From the IMG/VR virus record IMGVR_UViG_2541047888_000009: 40,155 nucleotides of DNA; one strand, given 5' to 3'. The position numbers were made by a program, and so were the translations under genes. Origin of the DNA: a virus. Taxonomy: Duplodnaviria; Heunggongvirae; Uroviricota; Caudoviricetes. Numbering within the stretch: position 1 is the first letter of the stretch; every line of letters starts with the position of its first letter. Below are positions 2,392 to 26,893 of the stretch, piece by piece. The notes below the pieces were generated by a model that had not been told where the DNA came from, ran no database searches, and saw only the letters and a list, made by a program, of their open reading frames with translations.

Positions 2392-2689
2392 GTTTAGACC
2401 TCGATACTTTGAAAATTTGAACGACGTTACCGCGCGTTTTAATAACCGCAGCGAGCATGACAGCGTTGATAATGACCTCAGATAAATCCACAGCCATTGG
2501 CGTGCGGAACCAGATTGCATAGGCAACACGAACCGGAATACTGGCCGCAGCAACAATCAGGAAATAAGCAAGCCACCCCCCCCATCTTCGATGTTGAGAT
2601 CCGTTACGCCGGAATGTGACAACACGAATTGCTATGCCAGTACAAATAACTGCATTGGTGATAAGCAAAAAAAACTCATGCGTTACCAT
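2381..2689 (-). CDS. Small membrane protein in the lysis cassette (holin or antiholin candidate)
   Basis: 102 aa with 2-3 predicted TM segments; GGAG RBS 8 nt upstream; overlaps the endolysin start by 11 bp, suggesting translational coupling. Confidence 0.5.
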
Positions 2690-3080
2690 CGTCTTTTCTC
2701 CCCGGAATTAACTCGCGTGGATTATCGGAACGGTGGTAGAGCCATATACCAATACGCACAGCAACAATTGCTGACACGAATGCGCCAGCAGAGAAAACAA
2801 TCCCTTTTTCAAAAGAGTCCTGCGTGATAGTAGGGATCAGGCTGGCTATGCCGATAAGAATTGATGCTGCTGGTTTATAAAAAAGAAGGCCGCAGAGAAA
2901 GCTAAGCATCGACAAGAGTACACGACGACGAATGGGATACTCTACCGCAGAGGTAACAAAAATTACCGCTCCAGCCAAAGCCCCCAAAGCAACCTCAGGA
3001 GGAACTCCTGCTATCACCGCCGCCAGAGAACTCATGCTAAGCCACTGATTTAAAGTTTCACTGGTTAGTTGAGCTGACAT
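2676..3080 (-). CDS. Putative holin (multi-TM membrane protein)
   Basis: First gene of the lysis cassette; several hydrophobic helices (LAAVIAGVPPEVALGALAGAVIFV, ILIGIASLIP, FVSAIVAVRIGIWL); ATG at 3080 with GGTGGA RBS, alternative GTG at 3089. Confidence 0.5.
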   Translation of the reverse strand: MSAQLTSETLNQWLSMSSLAAVIAGVPPEVALGALAGAVIFVTSAVEYPIRRRVLLSMLSFLCGLLFYKPAASILIGIASLIPTITQDSFEKGIVFSAGAFVSAIVAVRIGIWLYHRSDNPRELIPGRKDDGNA

Positions 3081-3300
3081 GTTTTCCACCGTTTATATGC
3101 ATAACTACCTCCTGAACAGTAAAGCATTATGCATGATAAACCATTTATGGTTTTTTGTTACTTCAACATCGTCAATCCCCTGTTTTCATGCCGATAATAA
3201 GGCTCACCTTTTACATAACACTGAAGAAACAACAGTACAGAAATGATTCAAACTATGGAGATCGGGTTGAATACCGCGCCATTTGATGGCGCGGTAGCGG

Positions 3301-3585
3301 TCAAATAGAGAAATAAATACAAAAACAAAAAATGACAGGAACAGCAAAATCCAACAGACTTCCCACATCCCACACGCGTGGATCAAAACCTCCCCACCAT
3401 GGCATGTTGATACGTTTCCCTTTCCCAAACTTTTCTATCCAGCGATATTCTGCCTGGGTGTGTTCACGCGCAATGAAGAACGTACAACCGGCTATCGCAC
3501 CGTAAGCCCAGTTTCCGGTAGAAAGGCCAACCAGTATCTGCGCAATAACCGCGCATACTGCATGTGTTATTGGTGTTGTATCCAT
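3301..3585 (-). CDS. Small membrane protein of unknown function between tailspike and lysis genes
   Basis: ATG at 3585 with AAGGA RBS; 94 aa with N- and C-terminal hydrophobic segments (AVCAVIAQILVGL..., LLDFAVPVIFCFCIYF). The listed longer ORF begins at a non-ATG codon. Confidence 0.5.
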   Translation of the reverse strand: MDTTPITHAVCAVIAQILVGLSTGNWAYGAIAGCTFFIAREHTQAEYRWIEKFGKGKRINMPWWGGFDPRVWDVGSLLDFAVPVIFCFCIYFSI

Positions 3586-3621
3586 ATTTTTATCCTTTTT
3601 TAATTTAGCAAATTGATACAA

Positions 3622-6396
3622 TTACACTCCTGATACTTCAATAGATAGTTGAATCTTATTTGGCATCTTGTTGCTTAAATATATGGTTGCAAAGTCAAAC
3701 GAAATATTTAAGTTATTTTCATCACCATCATTATCTGAAAGAACTCCGGTTTTCAATACAACATTTTGCTTATTAATTTCTTTTAAAGGAGAAAAATCAA
3801 TTGCCTCACCACGATGAATAAGAACACCAACTGCAATTACCCCATGAATATCAAGTATGTCGTGCATATCAAGGCGAACACATGGGACATATCCACCAAC
3901 AAGGATACTTGTAGATTTGTTGGCTTCAAGTGTTATTAGATATTTTCCGTCTGGTTGAACTATTGTTCCTGCTATTCCATCTGGCGTGTTGAACATACCG
4001 CAGTATCTGTATCCTGCTCCAACAGGAACAATTCTGTTACCGCCAAGATCATGGAAATTTCGAACAATTATTGCACCAGGAACTGATGAATAAACCATTA
4101 CTGCCTCTGTTTGCCCTGATACAGAGTCTGATGTTTCTGGGTTCGCCATGCATAAATTACCACCAAAATAAATATTTTGGATTAGAGGGGTGAGGCCATC
4201 ATTAACCTCAAAACGTAAAAAGCCCTTGAGAACAGTCCTTGCGGTATTATTCTTAATAACAACAGGAAGTTCTTTATAGTAAGAGTTTCTGTCTGTCTGT
4301 GCCAGAGTTGTTTCAATAAAAACAAAAGGTCTGTGATTACGTTGAGTTGCATTCACAGGTTTGTACCTCAAGTTGTATGGCAAAGACATCTCAGTAAAAC
4401 CATCAATATAATTACAGTTCTGAATCGTGAACCCACCACCACTATATCTTACAAAAAAAGGAGCCGGGCCGCTAAATCCCCTGGCGTTCATTCCATCATA
4501 CACTTCATTTAATCCGCGTATTACACCAGCATAATACAAATTGACTGAATTGCCGCCTGTAAAAGTTGTTTCGTATGATGGGCCGTGTCCACCGCAACAT
4601 GAATTTCTTGTATCGCCATCAGGGAAAAATTTAACTCCATCATATGCAGTTCCACCACCCATCATCGTTGGATTTATAATGTTATTATACAGTGATACCA
4701 TTTGAGTCCCGCTTACATCAAGCCCCCTCCTGCAAGCAAATGCTATCATATCCACGACTGTGCAATAGCTGCTATTGTATATTTCAACACCATAACCAGT
4801 GCCGTTTGTTAAATCATATGCACGGTTTGAGTATTCAATATATGGCTCTATTATTTTCGTTCTGTAGCATGACTCAAGAAAAATTCCAGTTTCTGAAAAG
4901 CCGATTAGTTTTATTCCTTCTATATGCATATCAACAGCGCCATCTATCACAAGACCACGGAACCCCAAATCACCAGGAGATGCGTTCTGCGTGACAGGTC
5001 TTTCAAAATTGAAATCACCGACAATTCTGCCGTAGCATGGTTTTCTTTTATATATATTTGCCTTTCTTGTGATTTTAAACACGTCTCCAACAGATGGTTT
5101 AAACGGGAATGGTCCCTGAGCATATTCAAATTTTGCTGTTTTAGTGTCGTAATCCCAATGAGTTATGTATCTTGATATTCCGGCGTTAGCTCCGGTGACA
5201 CCTGTTACTTTTACCTGATTGTATTGTTTTGTTAATGTTGCATCATTACCAAATGAGAATTCACCTCCGGATACAGATGCTGTTACGGTCGTTGAGTAAT
5301 CATTGCTCGCAGAGTAGAAAAAATAAAATGCACCTGATATCTCCGCTTTTTTTGTTGCATTATCAAAAGCAGTAACAACATGCATTTCACCTTCACAAGC
5401 CTGTCCTCTATTATCTGTCTGAATTAAGCGATTACCATGAATCATAATTATATCGCCTGCATCAAAAGAATATGCTGAGTTAATTGATATTGATGTGTCA
5501 CCAGGATTTATTGTTGAATTATAGTCAATTGGCGTGGCATCTCCACCTTCGAGTCTTATGAAATAATCATCAATCCAGTTTGGACCAAGAGGCTCTTTTG
5601 CGGTTGACTTTAAGACAACCTTGCCATCAGCTACCCAGTCATAGTTATAATTATCCCCGCCGCATTTTATGCGGCTAATCAAATACACACCAGAATCCCA
5701 CTTCAGGCGTTTTCCGTTAGATGCGCAGTAAATGATGGCATTTGTTATTGCGTCTGTATCGTCAGTAATGCCATCCCCTTTTGCACCAAAATCGCGAACA
5801 TTGACGATATCCCGCATCTTATCCTGGAACGTTCGATATACTGCCCCAAAACCATACTGAATAAACCAACCAAAACCACCAACAACCCCGGCGATTGCAG
5901 CATCGACATAATTACGCATTGAGCGATTATTTACAGCATCCTGCTCAAGTGATGGATCTGCAAGGTTAGAAATTCTGTTTTGCTTTGCATCGTAATATTT
6001 TGCAAGCAAAGATGGTTTCATCAATGCACGTCTGAACCACCCAAAACATCGCTGGATCAGCATCGTCAGGTAGTCAAATGCATCCTCATGAACTTCGGGG
6101 AAAAATTTTCCCTGATTGCGAAGATCAGTCTCCTGCACCACATCAAGCACACGCTCTATCGTGATTTTCCAGCCAGCAGCAAGCGGCGACGGAAGAACAA
6201 CAGAACCGCCACTATAAGTGCCCGCCCCAGTTACCGTATAACCGGTATCCAGAACCAATTCTGTTACGTTACCGTTCAGGTCAGACACCTGAACAACCAG
6301 GTCTGTTTTTTTGAAAATGCGGAAGGTATACGGAAATGATGTCGTAACGCCGTTACCTGTGTATTCGTTGTGGTCAACTTCGGTTGAGACCGTCAT
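3622..6396 (-). CDS. Tailspike protein: T7 gp17-like N-terminal adaptor domain fused to a pectate-lyase-like beta-helix (polysaccharide depolymerase type)
   Basis: N-terminus EYTGNGVTTSFPYTFRIFKKTDLVV resembles the T7 tail-fibre N-terminal domain; internal motif NVRDFGAKGDGITDDTDAITNAI is typical of pectate-lyase superfamily beta-helix tailspikes; GGAG RBS. Confidence 0.8.
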   Translation of the reverse strand: MTVSTEVDHNEYTGNGVTTSFPYTFRIFKKTDLVVQVSDLNGNVTELVLDTGYTVTGAGTYSGGSVVLPSPLAAGWKITIERVLDVVQETDLRNQGKFFPEVHEDAFDYLTMLIQRCFGWFRRALMKPSLLAKYYDAKQNRISNLADPSLEQDAVNNRSMRNYVDAAIAGVVGGFGWFIQYGFGAVYRTFQDKMRDIVNVRDFGAKGDGITDDTDAITNAIIYCASNGKRLKWDSGVYLISRIKCGGDNYNYDWVADGKVVLKSTAKEPLGPNWIDDYFIRLEGGDATPIDYNSTINPGDTSISINSAYSFDAGDIIMIHGNRLIQTDNRGQACEGEMHVVTAFDNATKKAEISGAFYFFYSASNDYSTTVTASVSGGEFSFGNDATLTKQYNQVKVTGVTGANAGISRYITHWDYDTKTAKFEYAQGPFPFKPSVGDVFKITRKANIYKRKPCYGRIVGDFNFERPVTQNASPGDLGFRGLVIDGAVDMHIEGIKLIGFSETGIFLESCYRTKIIEPYIEYSNRAYDLTNGTGYGVEIYNSSYCTVVDMIAFACRRGLDVSGTQMVSLYNNIINPTMMGGGTAYDGVKFFPDGDTRNSCCGGHGPSYETTFTGGNSVNLYYAGVIRGLNEVYDGMNARGFSGPAPFFVRYSGGGFTIQNCNYIDGFTEMSLPYNLRYKPVNATQRNHRPFVFIETTLAQTDRNSYYKELPVVIKNNTARTVLKGFLRFEVNDGLTPLIQNIYFGGNLCMANPETSDSVSGQTEAVMVYSSVPGAIIVRNFHDLGGNRIVPVGAGYRYCGMFNTPDGIAGTIVQPDGKYLITLEANKSTSILVGGYVPCVRLDMHDILDIHGVIAVGVLIHRGEAIDFSPLKEINKQNVVLKTGVLSDNDGDENNLNISFDFATIYLSNKMPNKIQLSIEVSGV

Positions 6397-6500
6397 GTTA
6401 AATCTCCAGATAGTCGCAGCACCCGTTGCGCCGCATATCTGGTTATTCTATTACCTGAAAAACCACATATGGATAGAAATACTGTGAATATAAATAGATA

Positions 6501-6515
6501 TTACCTTTTAGGTAA
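6501..6515. promoter_or_regulatory. Copy of the operator palindrome TTACC-N5-GGTAA (TTACCTTTTAGGTAA) upstream of the LexA-controlled moron
   Basis: Exact match to the 15-bp inverted repeat that clusters in the immunity region. Confidence 0.5.
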
Positions 6516-6554
6516 TTTGCAAAACGTGCTGGATAGCAAACAAATTATTTGATA

Positions 6555-6570
6555 CTGTATAAATATACAG
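6555..6570 (+). promoter_or_regulatory. LexA (SOS) box CTGTATAAATATACAG
   Basis: Perfect CTGT-N8-ACAG palindrome with AT-rich centre, 22 bp upstream of the ATG at 6593 and overlapping the probable -10 region. Confidence 0.7.
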
Positions 6571-6592
6571 TTATTGCATGGAGAAGATTAAG

Positions 6593-6850
6593 ATGCAGCA
6601 GTATCACTATCCACTGGAAGACGGATTTACCGAAAGGATTCACACGCCGGGAGGCGTCAAGTCACTGGTGGAGGGATCGCACTTGATGAAATTACTCCGG
6701 GATCTAGATAAGGATGGATTTAATGTCGATGGCCCACTTGCCGAACTGACTGCACTGATTAACTACGTCACCAGCTCACAGATGTCTATGCAGGATCTGC
6801 AAACACATCTCGACTATTGTGCCGAACAATTACGAAAACAAACCACATAA
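6593..6850 (+). CDS. LexA-regulated small protein (85 aa), opposite strand to the virion genes; candidate antirepressor
   Basis: ATG at 6593 preceded by GGAG (6581..6584); LexA box immediately upstream; followed by a hairpin terminator. No family recognised. Confidence 0.6.
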   Translation: MQQYHYPLEDGFTERIHTPGGVKSLVEGSHLMKLLRDLDKDGFNVDGPLAELTALINYVTSSQMSMQDLQTHLDYCAEQLRKQTT

Positions 6851-6856
6851 AGAAAA

Positions 6857-6872
6857 GGCCGCGAAAGCGGCC
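6857..6872. terminator. Hairpin GGCCGC-GAAA-GCGGCC, terminator for the minus-strand membrane-protein gene and probably the plus-strand moron
   Basis: 6-bp GC stem; on the minus strand it is followed by TTTTCTTTAT; on the plus strand the T-run is displaced by the GTGACATGTCAC palindrome. Confidence 0.5.
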
Positions 6873-6873
6873 T

Positions 6874-6885
6874 GTGACATGTCAC
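6874..6885. repeat. 12-bp perfect palindrome GTGACATGTCAC, copy 1 of 3
   Basis: Exact 12-mer also at 24431..24442 and 26882..26893; all three in short intergenic gaps. Confidence 0.8.
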
Positions 6886-7178
6886 GTCCCTTTTCTGAAT
6901 GATAGCCATTCGAAAAATGATGACATTCCACCGCAGACAATAGCAAAGATGATCCCACCAAAGAAGAGAAGGCCAGCCTGCCACCACTCCCACCGCCATA
7001 CATCCACAGCGCCAACCATACCAACAATCGCTCCAACAAATGGAATATAGCTCACGATGAAAGCAATGGGGGCTGCAATTATCCAGTGCAATCCCCACCA
7101 TGATTCAAGCCCAGCCATAATTGCTGCCAACTGAAAAAGACCAACGACGATATAAACAATGAATCCTATAGCTTGCAT
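6882..7178 (-). CDS. Small integral membrane protein (98 aa), unknown function
   Basis: AGGTGA RBS; three hydrophobic helices and a Trp-rich loop (VDVWRWEWWQAG); lies between the last internal virion protein gene and the tailspike. Confidence 0.55.
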   Translation of the reverse strand: MQAIGFIVYIVVGLFQLAAIMAGLESWWGLHWIIAAPIAFIVSYIPFVGAIVGMVGAVDVWRWEWWQAGLLFFGGIIFAIVCGGMSSFFEWLSFRKGT

Positions 7179-7373
7179 GTAGTCACCTATTTACCCAGTA
7201 AAAATAAGAGGCCTCCCCTCAATAAGGCTTGCAACAAGAACTACTCCCTGCACAACAAAGATGAACCAGCAAATAGCTTGAGTCTGAGGGTTAAGAAAAT
7301 ATTTGTAGCGGTCAATAAATAACAATCCACCAGAAATTATCACACTCAAAATAATTAAAAACACAACACTTCC

Positions 7374-9848
7374 TTATTGCGGAGTGACATCCTGAGGTCG
7401 CCACCAGTATGTCTGGTTAAACTCTTTCTTCGAACGTTGCTCCATTTTACGCAAATAGCCTGGTGAAAAATACTCCTGCATCTGGTTAAAGATCATGTGA
7501 TCGAGAGCCGCCTTCAAGTACCAGAGATTCGCACCAGGCATCAAACCTTTCCCCAGCTTCACCAGATCACCACCAGTCTGCTCACTCTTCCCTTCCACAG
7601 CATTTAACGGTATGCCCTGAGCAATCTTCACTACGTCATCAACCAGACCAGCTACCGGGCCAAGCATCGACGCCAGCGCGCCGCTTCCGTACCTAGTGTG
7701 ATCTGACAATAAAAAGTCACCGTAAAGGCCAAGACCACCACCTTTCAGTAGAGCACCAAGCCAGAATTTTGCGGCATCTTCTCCTGTCATCTCTCGAGGA
7801 TTACGACCAGACGCAAGGTCGTTAAGTTGCTGCGACAAAGCGCCAAGAATGGTCGTACTGGCAATAAACGTCGCAATATATGCCGCACGCCCACCAGCAG
7901 ACGGCATACCCATAGCGCGTGACCAGTGACGCATAACAACCGAGATAGGGAACGATTTAAACAGGAAAACACTTCTCGTTAATTCACCTTTCCATGTTCC
8001 ACGCTGAATACCAGAACCGGTTATCAGTTGCTCACGTGCTCCCGGTGTAATAACAGCCATATCAACTTCTTCAGTTACGGCACCGAGCAGTTTACGCATT
8101 GCCTCAAATTTCACGCGTTCAGGCTCACCAAGATGTTTAACTGCTGAATCAGGGATACGCATAATGCTTTCCGGTGTCAGCATCGTATTATTACCGTTCC
8201 CCCAATCCTCCTGTTGCGCCAGCTTCCATACGCTCCAATCTGTGTCAGTAATCCCTTTGCTTTTCAGGATACGAAAATCAGAGTCATCGAGGCTACGAAG
8301 GTCTGGTGTCCGTGACACTACTTCTCCCAGGCTTCCCATCATGGTTACGCCATAGGCGCGCTTGTGCGCATCTGACCATGCTGTAAGCCCACTGGCACGC
8401 ATTACCGCCGTTGCCGCCCAACGAGACACTGACGGCCCCATATTATCCATCGCCCAGCGGTTAACGCTGCCAAGTAGAGATTCCATTGCCAGACCAGCGC
8501 GGCGCGCCCGCGCAAGTTCTGTACGGTTCGTTGGGTCCATAGCTTCAAGCTGGTTGCGGAATAACTGGTTCATTGGAAGGTTGGTAACCTTCGCAGACAG
8601 ATACATGGTTCCAAGATCAGAGAACGATGACAGCAACGCGGATCCGAGTCTGCTGGCAACCAGCCAGTTGCGGATATTGTCAGACCATCGCGCGATGTGC
8701 GGATTCGCTACAGGCTGTGTCTTTCCGGAAATAAAGTTGTACAGATTCTCTGTGTTGTTCGCCAGCCGCTCGACTTTACCGGTTTTACTCGGGTTAGCTG
8801 TTGCCGTTTCTGCCTTAACCTGATCAAGAAGGGAGCGGAAAACATGATCGGGGTTTGGACCATATGTTTCCACCAGAGCAATATCTTTACTGATACCTTC
8901 CAGGTGACCGACCATGATTTCCCATAGAGAGCGATCGCCATAAAGTTGTTGATATTGGAGATAGGAATCTGCATCTTTGAAATGTATCTGTCGTGATGCA
9001 TTACCACGGTTAGCACGTGCGCCGGAAATTCGCATTCCGGTATCAGTAAGCTTATTCAGCCCACCAGTAGCGATCGTGTTATAAGCCTCTCCAAGAAATG
9101 CAGACAACTCGGCATCGTTCATCAGTTGTCCATCGGCTCGGGTATAATATTTGCGATCCAGCTTACCTATAACATCGCTAACCCATTTATCTTTTGATAC
9201 CGCCCCAACCTTTTCCATAGAATGATGTTGAGGGATCCCCCAGTTTTCGAGATAGCCAATGTCCCCACCAGCATCATTAAACCGGCGGCGCAGTAGATCT
9301 GTCACTTCTCTCCACGCCTTAGCACCTTTTCTTGCTTTAGCATTGCCAGTATTTTGCCCTCGCATTTCATATACCAGGTCACGCACGCCCGCTTCATCTT
9401 CAAACAGGCCAAAAAAGCGAGGATCAACTGCTTCAAATGCCTCCTGCAATTGACTCAATGCATAATCACGAGTGGCTTTTGTTCTGGATTCAACAGAGAG
9501 GAAATTCGATTTACCGTCTGCATTAAAAGCAATAGTACGGTTAAGAGCGCCAAGTTTCCCATCAGCCCCTTGATAGCTATTGATAAATTTATCCAATCTC
9601 TGACGTGCGGCTATAGTGAGGGCCACACGACGTTTCTTTAATGCCGCTTCTCGCTGTAATTCTTCAGATGCCAATTGTGCTGCACGATACAACCGTTCTG
9701 ATTCGGAAAGTTGTCGCCACGACATAGGGTCATCACGAGCAATGGAGCGCATATTTCGATAAATGCGGTCTTCAATGTTCTGTATTTCTCGCGCCGTTAA
9801 CGTGCGCTGCGCCGCCTGCTGGACCGCTTGTATACATTCCTGTCTCAT
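7374..9848 (-). CDS. Large internal virion / DNA-ejection protein (824 aa)
   Basis: Position in the T7-like order after the gp15-like gene; GAGAGG RBS; Gly-rich hydrophobic C-terminal region. Function inferred from position and size only. Confidence 0.6.
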   Translation of the reverse strand: MRQECIQAVQQAAQRTLTAREIQNIEDRIYRNMRSIARDDPMSWRQLSESERLYRAAQLASEELQREAALKKRRVALTIAARQRLDKFINSYQGADGKLGALNRTIAFNADGKSNFLSVESRTKATRDYALSQLQEAFEAVDPRFFGLFEDEAGVRDLVYEMRGQNTGNAKARKGAKAWREVTDLLRRRFNDAGGDIGYLENWGIPQHHSMEKVGAVSKDKWVSDVIGKLDRKYYTRADGQLMNDAELSAFLGEAYNTIATGGLNKLTDTGMRISGARANRGNASRQIHFKDADSYLQYQQLYGDRSLWEIMVGHLEGISKDIALVETYGPNPDHVFRSLLDQVKAETATANPSKTGKVERLANNTENLYNFISGKTQPVANPHIARWSDNIRNWLVASRLGSALLSSFSDLGTMYLSAKVTNLPMNQLFRNQLEAMDPTNRTELARARRAGLAMESLLGSVNRWAMDNMGPSVSRWAATAVMRASGLTAWSDAHKRAYGVTMMGSLGEVVSRTPDLRSLDDSDFRILKSKGITDTDWSVWKLAQQEDWGNGNNTMLTPESIMRIPDSAVKHLGEPERVKFEAMRKLLGAVTEEVDMAVITPGAREQLITGSGIQRGTWKGELTRSVFLFKSFPISVVMRHWSRAMGMPSAGGRAAYIATFIASTTILGALSQQLNDLASGRNPREMTGEDAAKFWLGALLKGGGLGLYGDFLLSDHTRYGSGALASMLGPVAGLVDDVVKIAQGIPLNAVEGKSEQTGGDLVKLGKGLMPGANLWYLKAALDHMIFNQMQEYFSPGYLRKMEQRSKKEFNQTYWWRPQDVTPQ

Positions 9849-21162: not shown

Positions 21163-21455
21163 TCCTGTTCACTGGCCTCTTTGGCCATCTTCAAATACTG
21201 TTCAGGGCAATGCGCCATAACGCGCTGAAACAGTTCCAGCGCCAGATTGCGTTGCCCCTCATTAAATGCCATTGCCATAGCGTCCATCGGTGAGATAGCG
21301 GAAAACACACGGCCTTTCTCCAGCACCGACCAGACAACGCGACGCCCCTGTTCACTGCTCATGACAAAGCGAATGTCATCAATTTCACGCTGTGCCATGT
21401 CACGTTGCTTACGGGCGTTTTCTTCTTTCAGTTGATCATCTTCGTAATCTGTCAT
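21159..21455 (-). CDS. Small head-module protein (98 aa), unknown function
   Basis: Sits between portal and scaffold genes with overlapping stop/start. Confidence 0.5.
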   Translation of the reverse strand: MTDYEDDQLKEENARKQRDMAQREIDDIRFVMSSEQGRRVVWSVLEKGRVFSAISPMDAMAMAFNEGQRNLALELFQRVMAHCPEQYLKMAKEASEQE

Positions 21456-23779: not shown

Positions 23780-23856
23780 GTGGCATTAGCTCAGTCGGAC
23801 AGAGCAACCGCCTTCTAAGCGGTTGGTCGCAGGTTCGAATCCTGCATGCCACGCCA
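23780..23856 (+). tRNA. tRNA-Arg (anticodon UCU, reads AGA)
   Basis: Full cloverleaf folded by hand: acceptor GTGGCAT/ATGCCAC, D-arm GCTC-AGTCGGACA-GAGC, anticodon arm ACCGC-CTTCTAA-GCGGT, T-arm GCAGG-TTCGAAT-CCTGC, discriminator G, encoded CCA. Confidence 0.85.
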
Positions 23857-24430: not shown

Positions 24431-24442
24431 GTGACATGTCAC
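24431..24442. repeat. 12-bp perfect palindrome GTGACATGTCAC, copy 2 of 3
   Basis: Exact repeat, 5 bp after the stop of the gp49-like gene and just before its terminator hairpin. Confidence 0.8.
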
Positions 24443-26881: not shown

Positions 26882-26893
26882 GTGACATGTCAC
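26882..26893. repeat. 12-bp perfect palindrome GTGACATGTCAC, copy 3 of 3
   Basis: Exact repeat in the gap between the Zn-ribbon gene (stop 26890) and the small gene starting at 26872. Confidence 0.8.

Follow-up and report, generated by a model that had tools for sequence, protein, structure and literature searches.

The DNA analysed here (IMG/VR virus record IMGVR_UViG_2541047888_000009, 40,155 nucleotides; 'the window' below means this whole stretch) is an almost complete prophage of Escherichia coli of the Uetakevirus (epsilon15/phiV10-like) group, with phiv142-3, HEMP4 and phiV10 as its nearest phage records. The subject is three small membrane-protein genes, orf94, orf98 and orf57, which lie around the tailspike gene in a region where most genes are on the minus strand, at the opposite end of the window from the integrase. 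The tailspike gene (924 residues; 3622..6396, minus strand; phrog_14558 with an E value of 0 and a Pect-lyase-like Pfam match) is followed by orf94 (94 residues; 3301..3585, minus strand), which starts 36 nt past the tailspike stop codon at 3622. On the other side, orf98 (98 residues; 6882..7178, minus strand) is preceded by orf57 (57 residues; 7191..7364, minus strand), an open reading frame (ORF) with a GTG start codon and two predicted transmembrane (TM) segments. This in turn starts 10 nt past the stop codon of an 824-residue internal virion/ejection protein (7374..9848, minus strand), 99.4% identical to the virion structural protein p20 of phiV10; three such large proteins (824, 600 and 862 residues) are encoded beyond orf57. 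An earlier note, made from the letters of the window, had described orf94 and orf98 as membrane-protein morons bracketing the tailspike gene and as candidates for superinfection exclusion or surface modification. The coordinates and sizes that it gave are correct for both genes, and orf94 is indeed just downstream of the tailspike. The placement of orf98 next to the tailspike, however, fails: an intrinsic terminator (6856..6873, minus strand), the gene orf90 and an AT-rich divergent region intervene, and orf57 had been overlooked. The plus-strand gene orf90 (6578..6850; phrog_450, E = 1e-47) is divergent from the tailspike and is a homologue of epsilon15 gp19 and phiV10 p24 (83–96% identity).

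The orf94 gene reads from an ATG at 3585, which an AGGA ribosome-binding site precedes by 7 nt, to a stop codon at 3301, and E. coli strain 201609 (NZ_CP048107.1) matches the window at every position of the gene (100% identity). It is a genuine gene and not a chance ORF. Both orf94 and orf98 are taken to be real genes because their ratios of nonsynonymous to synonymous substitution rates (dN/dS) are low and the clusters in their families are many: for orf94 the ratio is 0.18–0.19 (against phiv142-3 and phage 21) and the family comprises 577 clusters at 90% identity (318 at 50%). The protein matches PHROG 1443 (function unknown) over its full length (E = 4.2e-54, residues 1–94 on a 97-position profile). 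Of 5,426 complete E. coli genomes, 1,926 (35%) carry genes of this kind, with a median of two and a maximum of seven copies, and every copy listed is annotated as 'hypothetical protein'. AlphaFold2 models of orf94 and orf98 were built from the family alignments. The orf94 model is very confident, with a predicted local distance difference test (pLDDT) score of 97.6, and has three helices (residues 4–23, 26–53 and 74–93), while hydropathy gives two strongly hydrophobic segments and a weaker one; the protein is thus better written as having two to three TM segments than the two of the earlier note. His8, Arg40, Glu41, Gln44, Ala45, Glu46, Arg48, Arg58, Trp72 and Pro83 are near-invariant in the family, and Gln16, Gly24, Gly29, Tyr47, Trp49, Gly54, Gly56, Pro62 and Asp79 are strongly conserved. 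The residues of the RExxQAEYRW motif form one face of helix 2, just past the hydrophobic core. The family mean of Lys and Arg residues is 0.08 in the turn between helices 1 and 2 and 5.4 in the loop 40–73, a distribution that, by the positive-inside rule, would put the N-terminus and conserved loop in the cytoplasm; the basic C-terminal tails of some homologues and the two TM segments predicted in the phage 21 annotation speak against regarding the topology as settled. We found no relative of orf94 in Pfam, NCBIfam, PADLOC, PDB or BFVD, and no O-antigen conversion domain (Acyl_transf_3, GtrA/B/C or Wzy) among 124 family members scanned with Pfam. A UniRef label of DUF2809 on an alphaproteobacterial homologue (P0354) was followed up and discarded: neither P0354 nor any of nine other members had a Pfam match at E ≤ 10, whether to PF10990 or to another family. 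No mention of the RExxQAEYR motif or of the family was found in the literature searched.

The slot in which orf94 lies, between the tailspike and the holin genes, is filled by other genes in related phages. The window and phiV10 are homologous from the prophage end up to 3152, a stretch that includes the lysis genes, and again from 5962, inside the tailspike adaptor; the flanks of the swapped segments are 81–98% identical. Between these points phiV10 has another fibre and, on the opposite strand, oac, which together replace orf94 and the C-terminal part of the tailspike; Oac is an O-antigen acetyltransferase for which the record annotates a role in superinfection immunity. Epsilon15 has gp21 (Wzy-like) and gp22 (a two-TM polymerase inhibitor) in this slot. 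In 31 sister prophages that have orf98 and lack orf94, the tailspike-to-holin spacer measures 90–2,395 nt; the filled spacers hold Acyl_transf_3 (such genes are seen in the sister prophages L182 and L217), AT3 plus SGNH or a SASA carbohydrate esterase with a Tat signal, and the others are empty. Because epsilon15, phiV10 and the sister prophages place glycan-modifying genes here, the slot is a genuine hot spot for genes that modify the surface glycan. Against phiv142-3, homology of 88% extends through orf94 and ends at its start codon, the receptor-binding part being different, which makes orf94 a module of its own.

The same attachment to the end of a receptor-binding module is seen elsewhere. 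In prophages, orf94 homologues are directly 3' of the last gene of this module, on the same strand and often abutting or overlapping it; those of Aeromonas and Comamonas prophages and of phage 21 overlap or abut the fibre gene. The genes that precede them are of many kinds: podoviral tailspikes with seven or more unrelated receptor-binding domains on two N-terminal adaptors, a lambdoid side tail fibre with a 92-residue ORF after it (in phage 21 and numerous 'Lambda_ev' phages), short fibres that carry a Peptidase_S74 chaperone domain, a 2,520-residue GpJ (Comamonas), a P2/HP1-like fibre (Aeromonas) and the fibre-assembly gene of Halomonas phage phiHAP-1. Since so many unrelated fibre classes precede the homologues, orf94 is linked to the fibre module independently of the type of fibre. 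A tie between orf94 and one receptor-binding domain was considered and rejected, given the seven or more unrelated tailspike domains and the several fibre classes that precede it; we found no case of an identical receptor-binding domain both with and without orf94. The 92-residue ORF is acidic and soluble, always separates the orf94 homologue from the lambdoid side tail fibre, whose stop codon it overlaps (5710–5988 in L003, which is CPT_21_23 of phage 21; also in L031, L040 and other lambdoid loci), and has no Pfam match; it may be a fibre chaperone. In the window, the conserved N-terminal adaptor of the tailspike covers residues 1–221 and is the only part with 94% identity to the phiv142-3 fibre. 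The GC content is 0.39 in the exchangeable receptor-binding part (3622–5899) and 0.46 in the adaptor (5900–6396), compared with about 0.50 for the phage. The receptor-binding part is found on a different adaptor in a viral contig (L018; 98.8% identity over 741 residues), a fusion that shows domain shuffling, and the tailspike also has a weak Pfam match to the endosialidase N-terminal extension (E = 0.004).

A scan with one genome per species gave about 50 copies of the orf94 family outside the enterobacteria, mainly in Sphingomonadales; Devosia, Aureimonas, Chelativorans, Porticoccaceae and metagenome-assembled genomes of Desulfuromonadaceae and Trichlorobacter are further holders. Many of these copies lie in kps-type capsule loci, which are chromosomal and not prophage. 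The neighbours include Capsule_synth genes (KpsS/KpsC-like; 13 loci), Poly_export plus SLBB genes (KpsD-like; ten loci) and genes of the 3-deoxy-d-manno-octulosonic acid (Kdo) pathway, namely a KpsU-like CMP-Kdo synthetase (ten loci), a KpsF-like SIS plus CBS isomerase (nine loci) and KdsA-like genes (11 loci). In Aurantiacibacter suaedae the order is a 402-residue ORF (KpsE-like by position, with no Pfam match), ABC2_membrane (KpsM-like), ABC_tran (KpsT-like) and then the orf94 homologue, surrounded by KdsA, KpsF, KpsU, KpsC and KpsD. In Croceibacterium, Capsule_synth is followed after a gap of 12 nt by the orf94 homologue, and in another arrangement the homologue follows Poly_export. Both chromosomal homologues that were translated keep the invariant motif of the family. 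Kps or Kds genes lie within 5 kb at 21 of the 52 non-enterobacterial species loci, compared with none of 28 gamma- and betaproteobacterial loci, where those with upstream genes checked are prophage contexts. The kps-type loci of Sphingomonadales (L180 from Aurantiacibacter, L181 from Croceibacterium and L128–L179) repeatedly mix Kdo-pathway genes with KpsS/C/D/M/T-like genes and also carry a Sulfatase-family (EptA/LtaS-like) protein, a fatty-acid hydroxylase, an SDR protein and a histidine phosphatase, an uncommon make-up for a capsule locus. We found no report of a link between the orf94 family and kps genes in the literature that we searched.

The second cassette is formed by orf57 and orf98. 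The orf98 gene reads from an ATG at 7178 to a stop codon at 6882 with an AGGTGA ribosome-binding site, and the protein matches PHROG 3075 (function unknown) over its full length (E = 1.6e-54, residues 1–98 of 98 positions). It has three hydrophobic segments, and the AlphaFold2 model (pLDDT 90.8) has helices at residues 2–28, 32–42/46–59, with a kink at the invariant Pro46, and 65–97. The loop DVWRWEWWQ (58–66) contains Trp61, Trp63, Trp65 and Trp66, which are invariant or nearly so; the three TM segments and the Trp-rich loop of the earlier note were thus found as described. On the model, orf98 is probably a polytopic inner-membrane protein with three TM segments. Its dN/dS is 0.017 against Klebsiella phage BUCT711 (82% nucleotide and 94% protein identity). 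The family is much smaller than that of orf94: it has 52 clusters, its named members are all from Enterobacterales, its occurrences in the phage collection are confined to temperate Uetakevirus records and it is found in 216 of the 5,426 E. coli genomes; database names of the homologues are 'hypothetical protein'. The frame of orf57 is kept in BUCT711 by a compensating insertion and deletion, with a dN/dS of about 0.1 in the C-terminal part and a TTG start codon in place of the GTG of the window. The gene is without annotation in the phiv142-3 and BUCT711 records, yet it is conserved in frame.

Synteny ties orf98 to the ejection genes. The distance from orf98 to the ejection gene is constant in all 80 orf98-bearing viral contigs, 66 of which also have orf57. 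The gene comes directly after the last large ejection-protein gene in podophage prophages of Klebsiella, Cronobacter, Salmonella and Yersinia, and remote homologues (54–61% identity) in Cronobacter, Salmonella and Yersinia likewise follow the last large ejection-type protein; the Salmonella element has no tailspike nearby. The constant neighbour and this tailspike-free element place orf98 in the ejection operon and not with the tailspike. In phiV10, an ejection protein that is 99.4% identical is followed by an unrelated 46-residue two-TM gene (p21) instead of orf57 and orf98, while ejection proteins that are only 24–27% identical precede the orf98 homologues of 54–61% identity. Co-evolution of orf98 with the ejection protein was accordingly rejected, the cassette being swapped independently of ejection-protein identity, and on these comparisons orf57 and orf98 form an exchangeable two-gene cassette. 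Epsilon15 gp18 and phiV10 p21, at the orf98 position, are small TM ORFs unrelated to orf98.

The end of this cassette is well marked. The strong terminator of the ejection-protein/orf57/orf98 unit (6856..6873) folds into a 7 bp stem with six GC pairs and is followed by a T-run, and equivalent hairpins follow the orf98 homologues in BUCT711, Cronobacter and Yersinia. Next to it is a perfect 12 bp palindrome, GTGACATGTCAC (6874..6885, no strand), which overlaps the orf98 stop codon just ahead of the terminator. The window has three exact copies (6874–6885, 24431–24442 and 26882–26893) and one with a single mismatch (21392–21403), compared with 0.13 expected; the copy at 24431 follows a terminator-like hairpin and that at 26882 precedes a ribosome-binding site and ATG by about 10 nt. 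The copy at the orf98 stop codon is also present in BUCT711 and Cronobacter and is kept in phiV10, which is without orf98. It would mark the right-hand boundary of the exchangeable cassette, and the palindrome is a candidate operator or module-boundary element. The spacer between orf98 and orf90 (6850–6882 in the window) ranges from about 40 nt, as in the window, to about 3 kb among relatives (L001, L002, L092 and L182–L261) and is the real insertion hot spot of the phage group, with an anti-repressor in phiV10 and phiv142-3 and HicAB and Bro-N in Cronobacter; the relatives' spacers hold Bro-N anti-repressors, small ORFs and a HicA/DUF1902 pair.

Neither protein falls in a curated family of known function. 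Scans of orf94, orf98, orf57 and orf90 against Pfam, NCBIfam and PADLOC gave nothing above sub-threshold noise, and PADLOC-DB gave no defence model at E ≤ 1 for any of the four. The best-scoring holin comparison, orf98 with Phage_holin_5_2, reached 15.2 bits (E = 0.027), below the curated cut-off of 29.2, and orf94 had no holin match. BLASTP of orf94 and orf98 showed no similarity to epsilon15 gp18, gp22, gp28 and gp32 or to phiV10 p21, and hhalign of the orf98 family profile against P22 SieA gave a probability of 0.2%, i.e. no homology. Both genes are absent from epsilon15 and phiV10 and so are not conserved Uetakevirus virion proteins. The earlier note was therefore right that neither belongs to the conserved virion or lysis sets; homology to such components, which it had named as a refutation, was looked for and none was found at curated thresholds. 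The topology prediction that it had proposed as a check gave three predicted helices for orf94 and three segments for orf98 (AlphaFold2 and hydropathy).

The term moron is apt in part. All three genes are absent from phiV10, so they are optional between near-identical phages, and the cassettes have sharp boundaries against phiV10 and phiv142-3. They are, however, co-oriented with the late structural genes, with gaps of 10–36 nt to the upstream gene; behind orf98 there is a terminator and behind orf94 a hairpin, and a consensus scan, which is weak evidence, showed no sigma-70-like promoter directly upstream of orf94, orf57 or orf98. With the late-strand orientation, the tight spacing and no promoter of their own seen, they do not show the classic moron pattern. 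In comparison, P22 sieA and gtrABC, epsilon15 gp21/22 and phiV10 oac are transcribed against the late genes, and sieA and gtrABC are annotated with promoters of their own. The default expectation would be late expression, along with the tailspike or the ejection proteins. The phiv142-3 expression table (serum versus lysogeny broth) omits the homologues orf5 and orf12, and a paper on a Gifsy defence gene mentions phiv142-3 only in passing (PMC12724215). The claim that genes at such positions often alter the receptor or block incoming DNA is fair as regards the slots, which are used in this way, but the known genes there are on the opposite strand.

Two independent lines, the glycan-modification slot in phages and the residence in kps operons in another bacterial class, point to polysaccharides as the field of action of orf94 and suggest a role of the family in envelope-polysaccharide assembly; they would name the field and not the biochemical mechanism. 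Taking both cassettes together, we tentatively favour a reading, quite possible though short of probable, in which orf94 acts on inner-membrane steps of surface-polysaccharide assembly and orf57/orf98 act at the inner membrane on the entry of the genome or ejection proteins. The prophage would then carry two unrelated optional cassettes for small inner-membrane proteins, each forming the distal part of a late transcription unit. The juxtamembrane face of orf94 (RExxQAEYRW with His8, Arg58, Trp72, Asp79 and Pro83), near-invariant from Enterobacteria to Sphingomonadales and cytoplasmic by the positive-inside rule, would bind some conserved component of envelope-polysaccharide assembly or act on it, for example on a lipid-linked glycan intermediate or on the export machinery. 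The result would be an altered surface glycan layer, the layer that is read by the phage's own receptor-binding protein. The orf57/orf98 pair would exclude related phages at the inner membrane or protect the producing cell. The proposal of the earlier note is thus supported in part: surface modification by orf94 gains from the capsule-locus link, while the lack of homology to known exclusion and conversion proteins and the tie of orf98 to the ejection operon speak against the proposal. A bolder form, in which the orf94 family is an unrecognised conserved inner-membrane component or modulator of ATP-binding cassette (ABC) transporter-dependent (kps-type, Kdo-linked) polysaccharide assembly, captured by tailed phages of many morphotypes and retained as the last gene of the receptor-binding module so as to remodel the glycan coat of the host, is in our view rather unlikely.

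Several known systems resemble parts of this arrangement. Epsilon15 gp21/gp22 occupy the same slot as orf94, from the tailspike to the lysis cassette of a Uetakevirus, and gp22 (66 residues, two TM segments, an inhibitor of the host alpha-polymerase) is likewise a tiny inner-membrane phage protein that acts on O-antigen assembly; Iap of Pseudomonas phage D3 is a comparable system. There is, however, no sequence similarity (gp22 was compared), gp21/22 are on the opposite strand while orf94 is co-oriented with the tailspike, and the orf94 family is far more widely spread and conserved across bacterial classes. The Acyl_transf_3 enzymes, including phiV10 Oac, share the slot (phiV10, L182 and L217), but have ten TM segments and 330–620 residues and lie on the opposite strand, whereas orf94 has 94 residues and no Pfam match. 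In the kps-type loci, family members are arranged in an operon-like manner with KpsM/KpsT-, KpsS/KpsC-, KpsD-, KpsF-, KpsU- and KdsA-like genes, an association seen in Alphaproteobacteria and not in E. coli. Llp of T5 and Cor of phi80 and N15 are encoded beside a receptor-binding gene and protect against superinfection or progeny loss; these are outer-membrane lipoproteins, each specific for one protein receptor, and orf94 differs in having no lipobox, in being polytopic on the model and in its independence of the fibre type. For orf57/orf98, the position relative to the other genes is that of P22 sieA, which directly adjoins the last ejection gene (gene 16) and has the immI/antirepressor region and the tailspike beyond it, although SieA has 164 residues, is transcribed from its own promoter on the opposite strand and shows no homology to orf98. 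Holins encoded after fibre genes, such as gp17.5 of T7 after the tail-fibre gene, share with orf94 and orf98 that they are small TM proteins at the end of the structural genes; here the Phage_holin_5_2 match of orf98 is below the cut-off and two bona fide holin-family genes are already present.

A number of observations weigh against the reading that we favour. Neither orf94 nor orf98 has homology to characterised exclusion, conversion, defence, holin or virion proteins. The capsule link is guilt by association from another bacterial class; to our knowledge E. coli kps loci carry no orf94-like gene, and we neither know of nor found in our literature searches a role described for a membrane protein of about 100 residues in kps-type systems. 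About eight Novosphingobium loci of the family adjoin housekeeping genes (cyclophilin, MgtE and GltX). Up to seven copies in one E. coli genome would be redundant for a host-level function. Expression of orf94, orf57 and orf98 in the lysogen is doubtful, because they lie on the late strand with gaps of 10–36 nt and no promoter was found upstream. Remote orf94 homologues are also found in Aeromonas jumbo phages and in a T7-like contig, where the neighbours are genes of DNA metabolism. This metagenomic contig (L098, with an exonuclease, endonuclease I, ThyX and MazG) has its 34%-identical homologue at 308–604, between a 91-residue ORF and a split DNA polymerase A, so the family is not confined to temperate phages or to tail-fibre modules.

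Several of these points would suit an explanation in which both genes act late in the cycle, either as lysis-timing accessories of the holin/antiholin type or as a membrane 'immunity' against premature insertion of the ejection proteins. The shared strand, the tight coupling to late genes with no promoter of their own and the terminator only after the cassette are what it would lead one to expect, as are the homologues that overlap or abut the fibre gene in Aeromonas, Comamonas and phage 21; many copies per genome would fit a function that each phage needs for itself, and orf98 has its sub-threshold Phage_holin_5_2 match. The position of orf94 directly upstream of the lysis cassette can be read in the same way, and in a Comamonas prophage the orf94 homologue precedes two multi-TM ORFs and a soluble ORF, but these downstream ORFs are not homologous to the holins of the window and the 183-residue ORF has no PDB match, so the lysis link drawn through this prophage was dropped. 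The window already has a complete lysis cassette, close relatives manage without orf94 and orf98, the lambdoid and P2-like homologues of orf94 are far from lysis genes and the chromosomal homologues lie in capsule operons and not in phages. We consider late-cycle action unlikely, although worth keeping in mind. Alternatively, orf94 could be a pure entry-exclusion protein, as orf98 may be, blocking genome entry like T4 Imm, P22 SieA and HK97 gp15 with no role in polysaccharides. Both are small polytopic inner-membrane proteins on the models; the homologues in virulent phages lie among early or middle genes, as T4 imm does; and a known hot spot for moron and defence genes is the distal end of tail-fibre modules, where phiHAP-1 has its homologue, at the P2 Z/fun position. 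Set against this are the lack of SieA similarity and of any PADLOC match, expression in the lysogen that is only presumed, and the chromosomal non-prophage homologues in kps operons, which are hard to explain by exclusion; we consider this reading, too, unlikely. That the genes are unimportant hitch-hikers or mis-called ORFs, carried along by tailspike and ejection-gene recombination, might be thought from their 'hypothetical protein' names and from their absence in close relatives with no obvious consequence. With dN/dS values of 0.02–0.19, near-invariant motifs across several classes of Proteobacteria and the Desulfuromonadaceae/Trichlorobacter genomes, very confident fold predictions and compensating indels that keep the orf57 frame, this is highly improbable, and the conservation data in effect refute it.

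Accessory phage genes whose membrane products affect the envelope are familiar in kind, while the orf94 and orf98 families are uncharacterised. Prophage genes that remodel the surface or block other phages shape serotype, host range in phage therapy and vaccine targets. The linkage to receptor-binding modules together with the kps operons of Sphingomonadales gives a concrete handle on a very common unknown gene family, and it may also indicate that ABC-transporter-dependent capsule pathways have a small membrane component that has so far been missed. If the polysaccharide role is correct, about one third of E. coli genomes carry phage-borne copies of an uncharacterised factor of a polysaccharide pathway. 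The orf57/orf98 slot would add candidate exclusion proteins that are linked to podovirus ejection proteins.

Beyond orf94 the minus strand continues into a full lysis set (two holin-family genes, an endolysin and spanins, by Pfam and PHROG). Its members are a Phage_holin_8-like gene downstream of orf94 (2676–3089; Pfam E = 4e-12, PHROG holin), a Phage_holin_3_7 holin (2381–2689; Pfam E = 4e-27, PHROG holin), a GH19 endolysin (1762–2391) and an Rz spanin (1268–1765), all on the minus strand. The spacer between orf94 and the holin-like gene (3090–3300; 211 nt) is AT-rich and contains TTGACG and TATCAT-like hexamers and a GC-rich hairpin (3272..3296, minus strand), which begins 5 nt past the orf94 stop codon. 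The hairpin has an 11 bp stem without a T-run and a fold energy of −19.4 kcal/mol (z = −4.4); a terminator consensus scan gave no call for it, and it is possibly a weak terminator or an RNA-stabilising or processing hairpin. The spacer may hold a separate promoter for the lysis cassette or a processing site; in the epsilon15 record, the corresponding place is annotated with an RNase III site. Elsewhere in the window, a tRNA-Arg gene (anticodon TCT; 23780–23856, plus strand) lies in a gap in the structural and packaging region, on the strand opposite to its neighbours. Homology to phage genomes begins at about 1164, and the left edge (1–1072) contains host genes outside the prophage, which encode a 171-residue glycine-rich lipoprotein and a 101-residue secreted protein rich in Gln, Ala and Lys.

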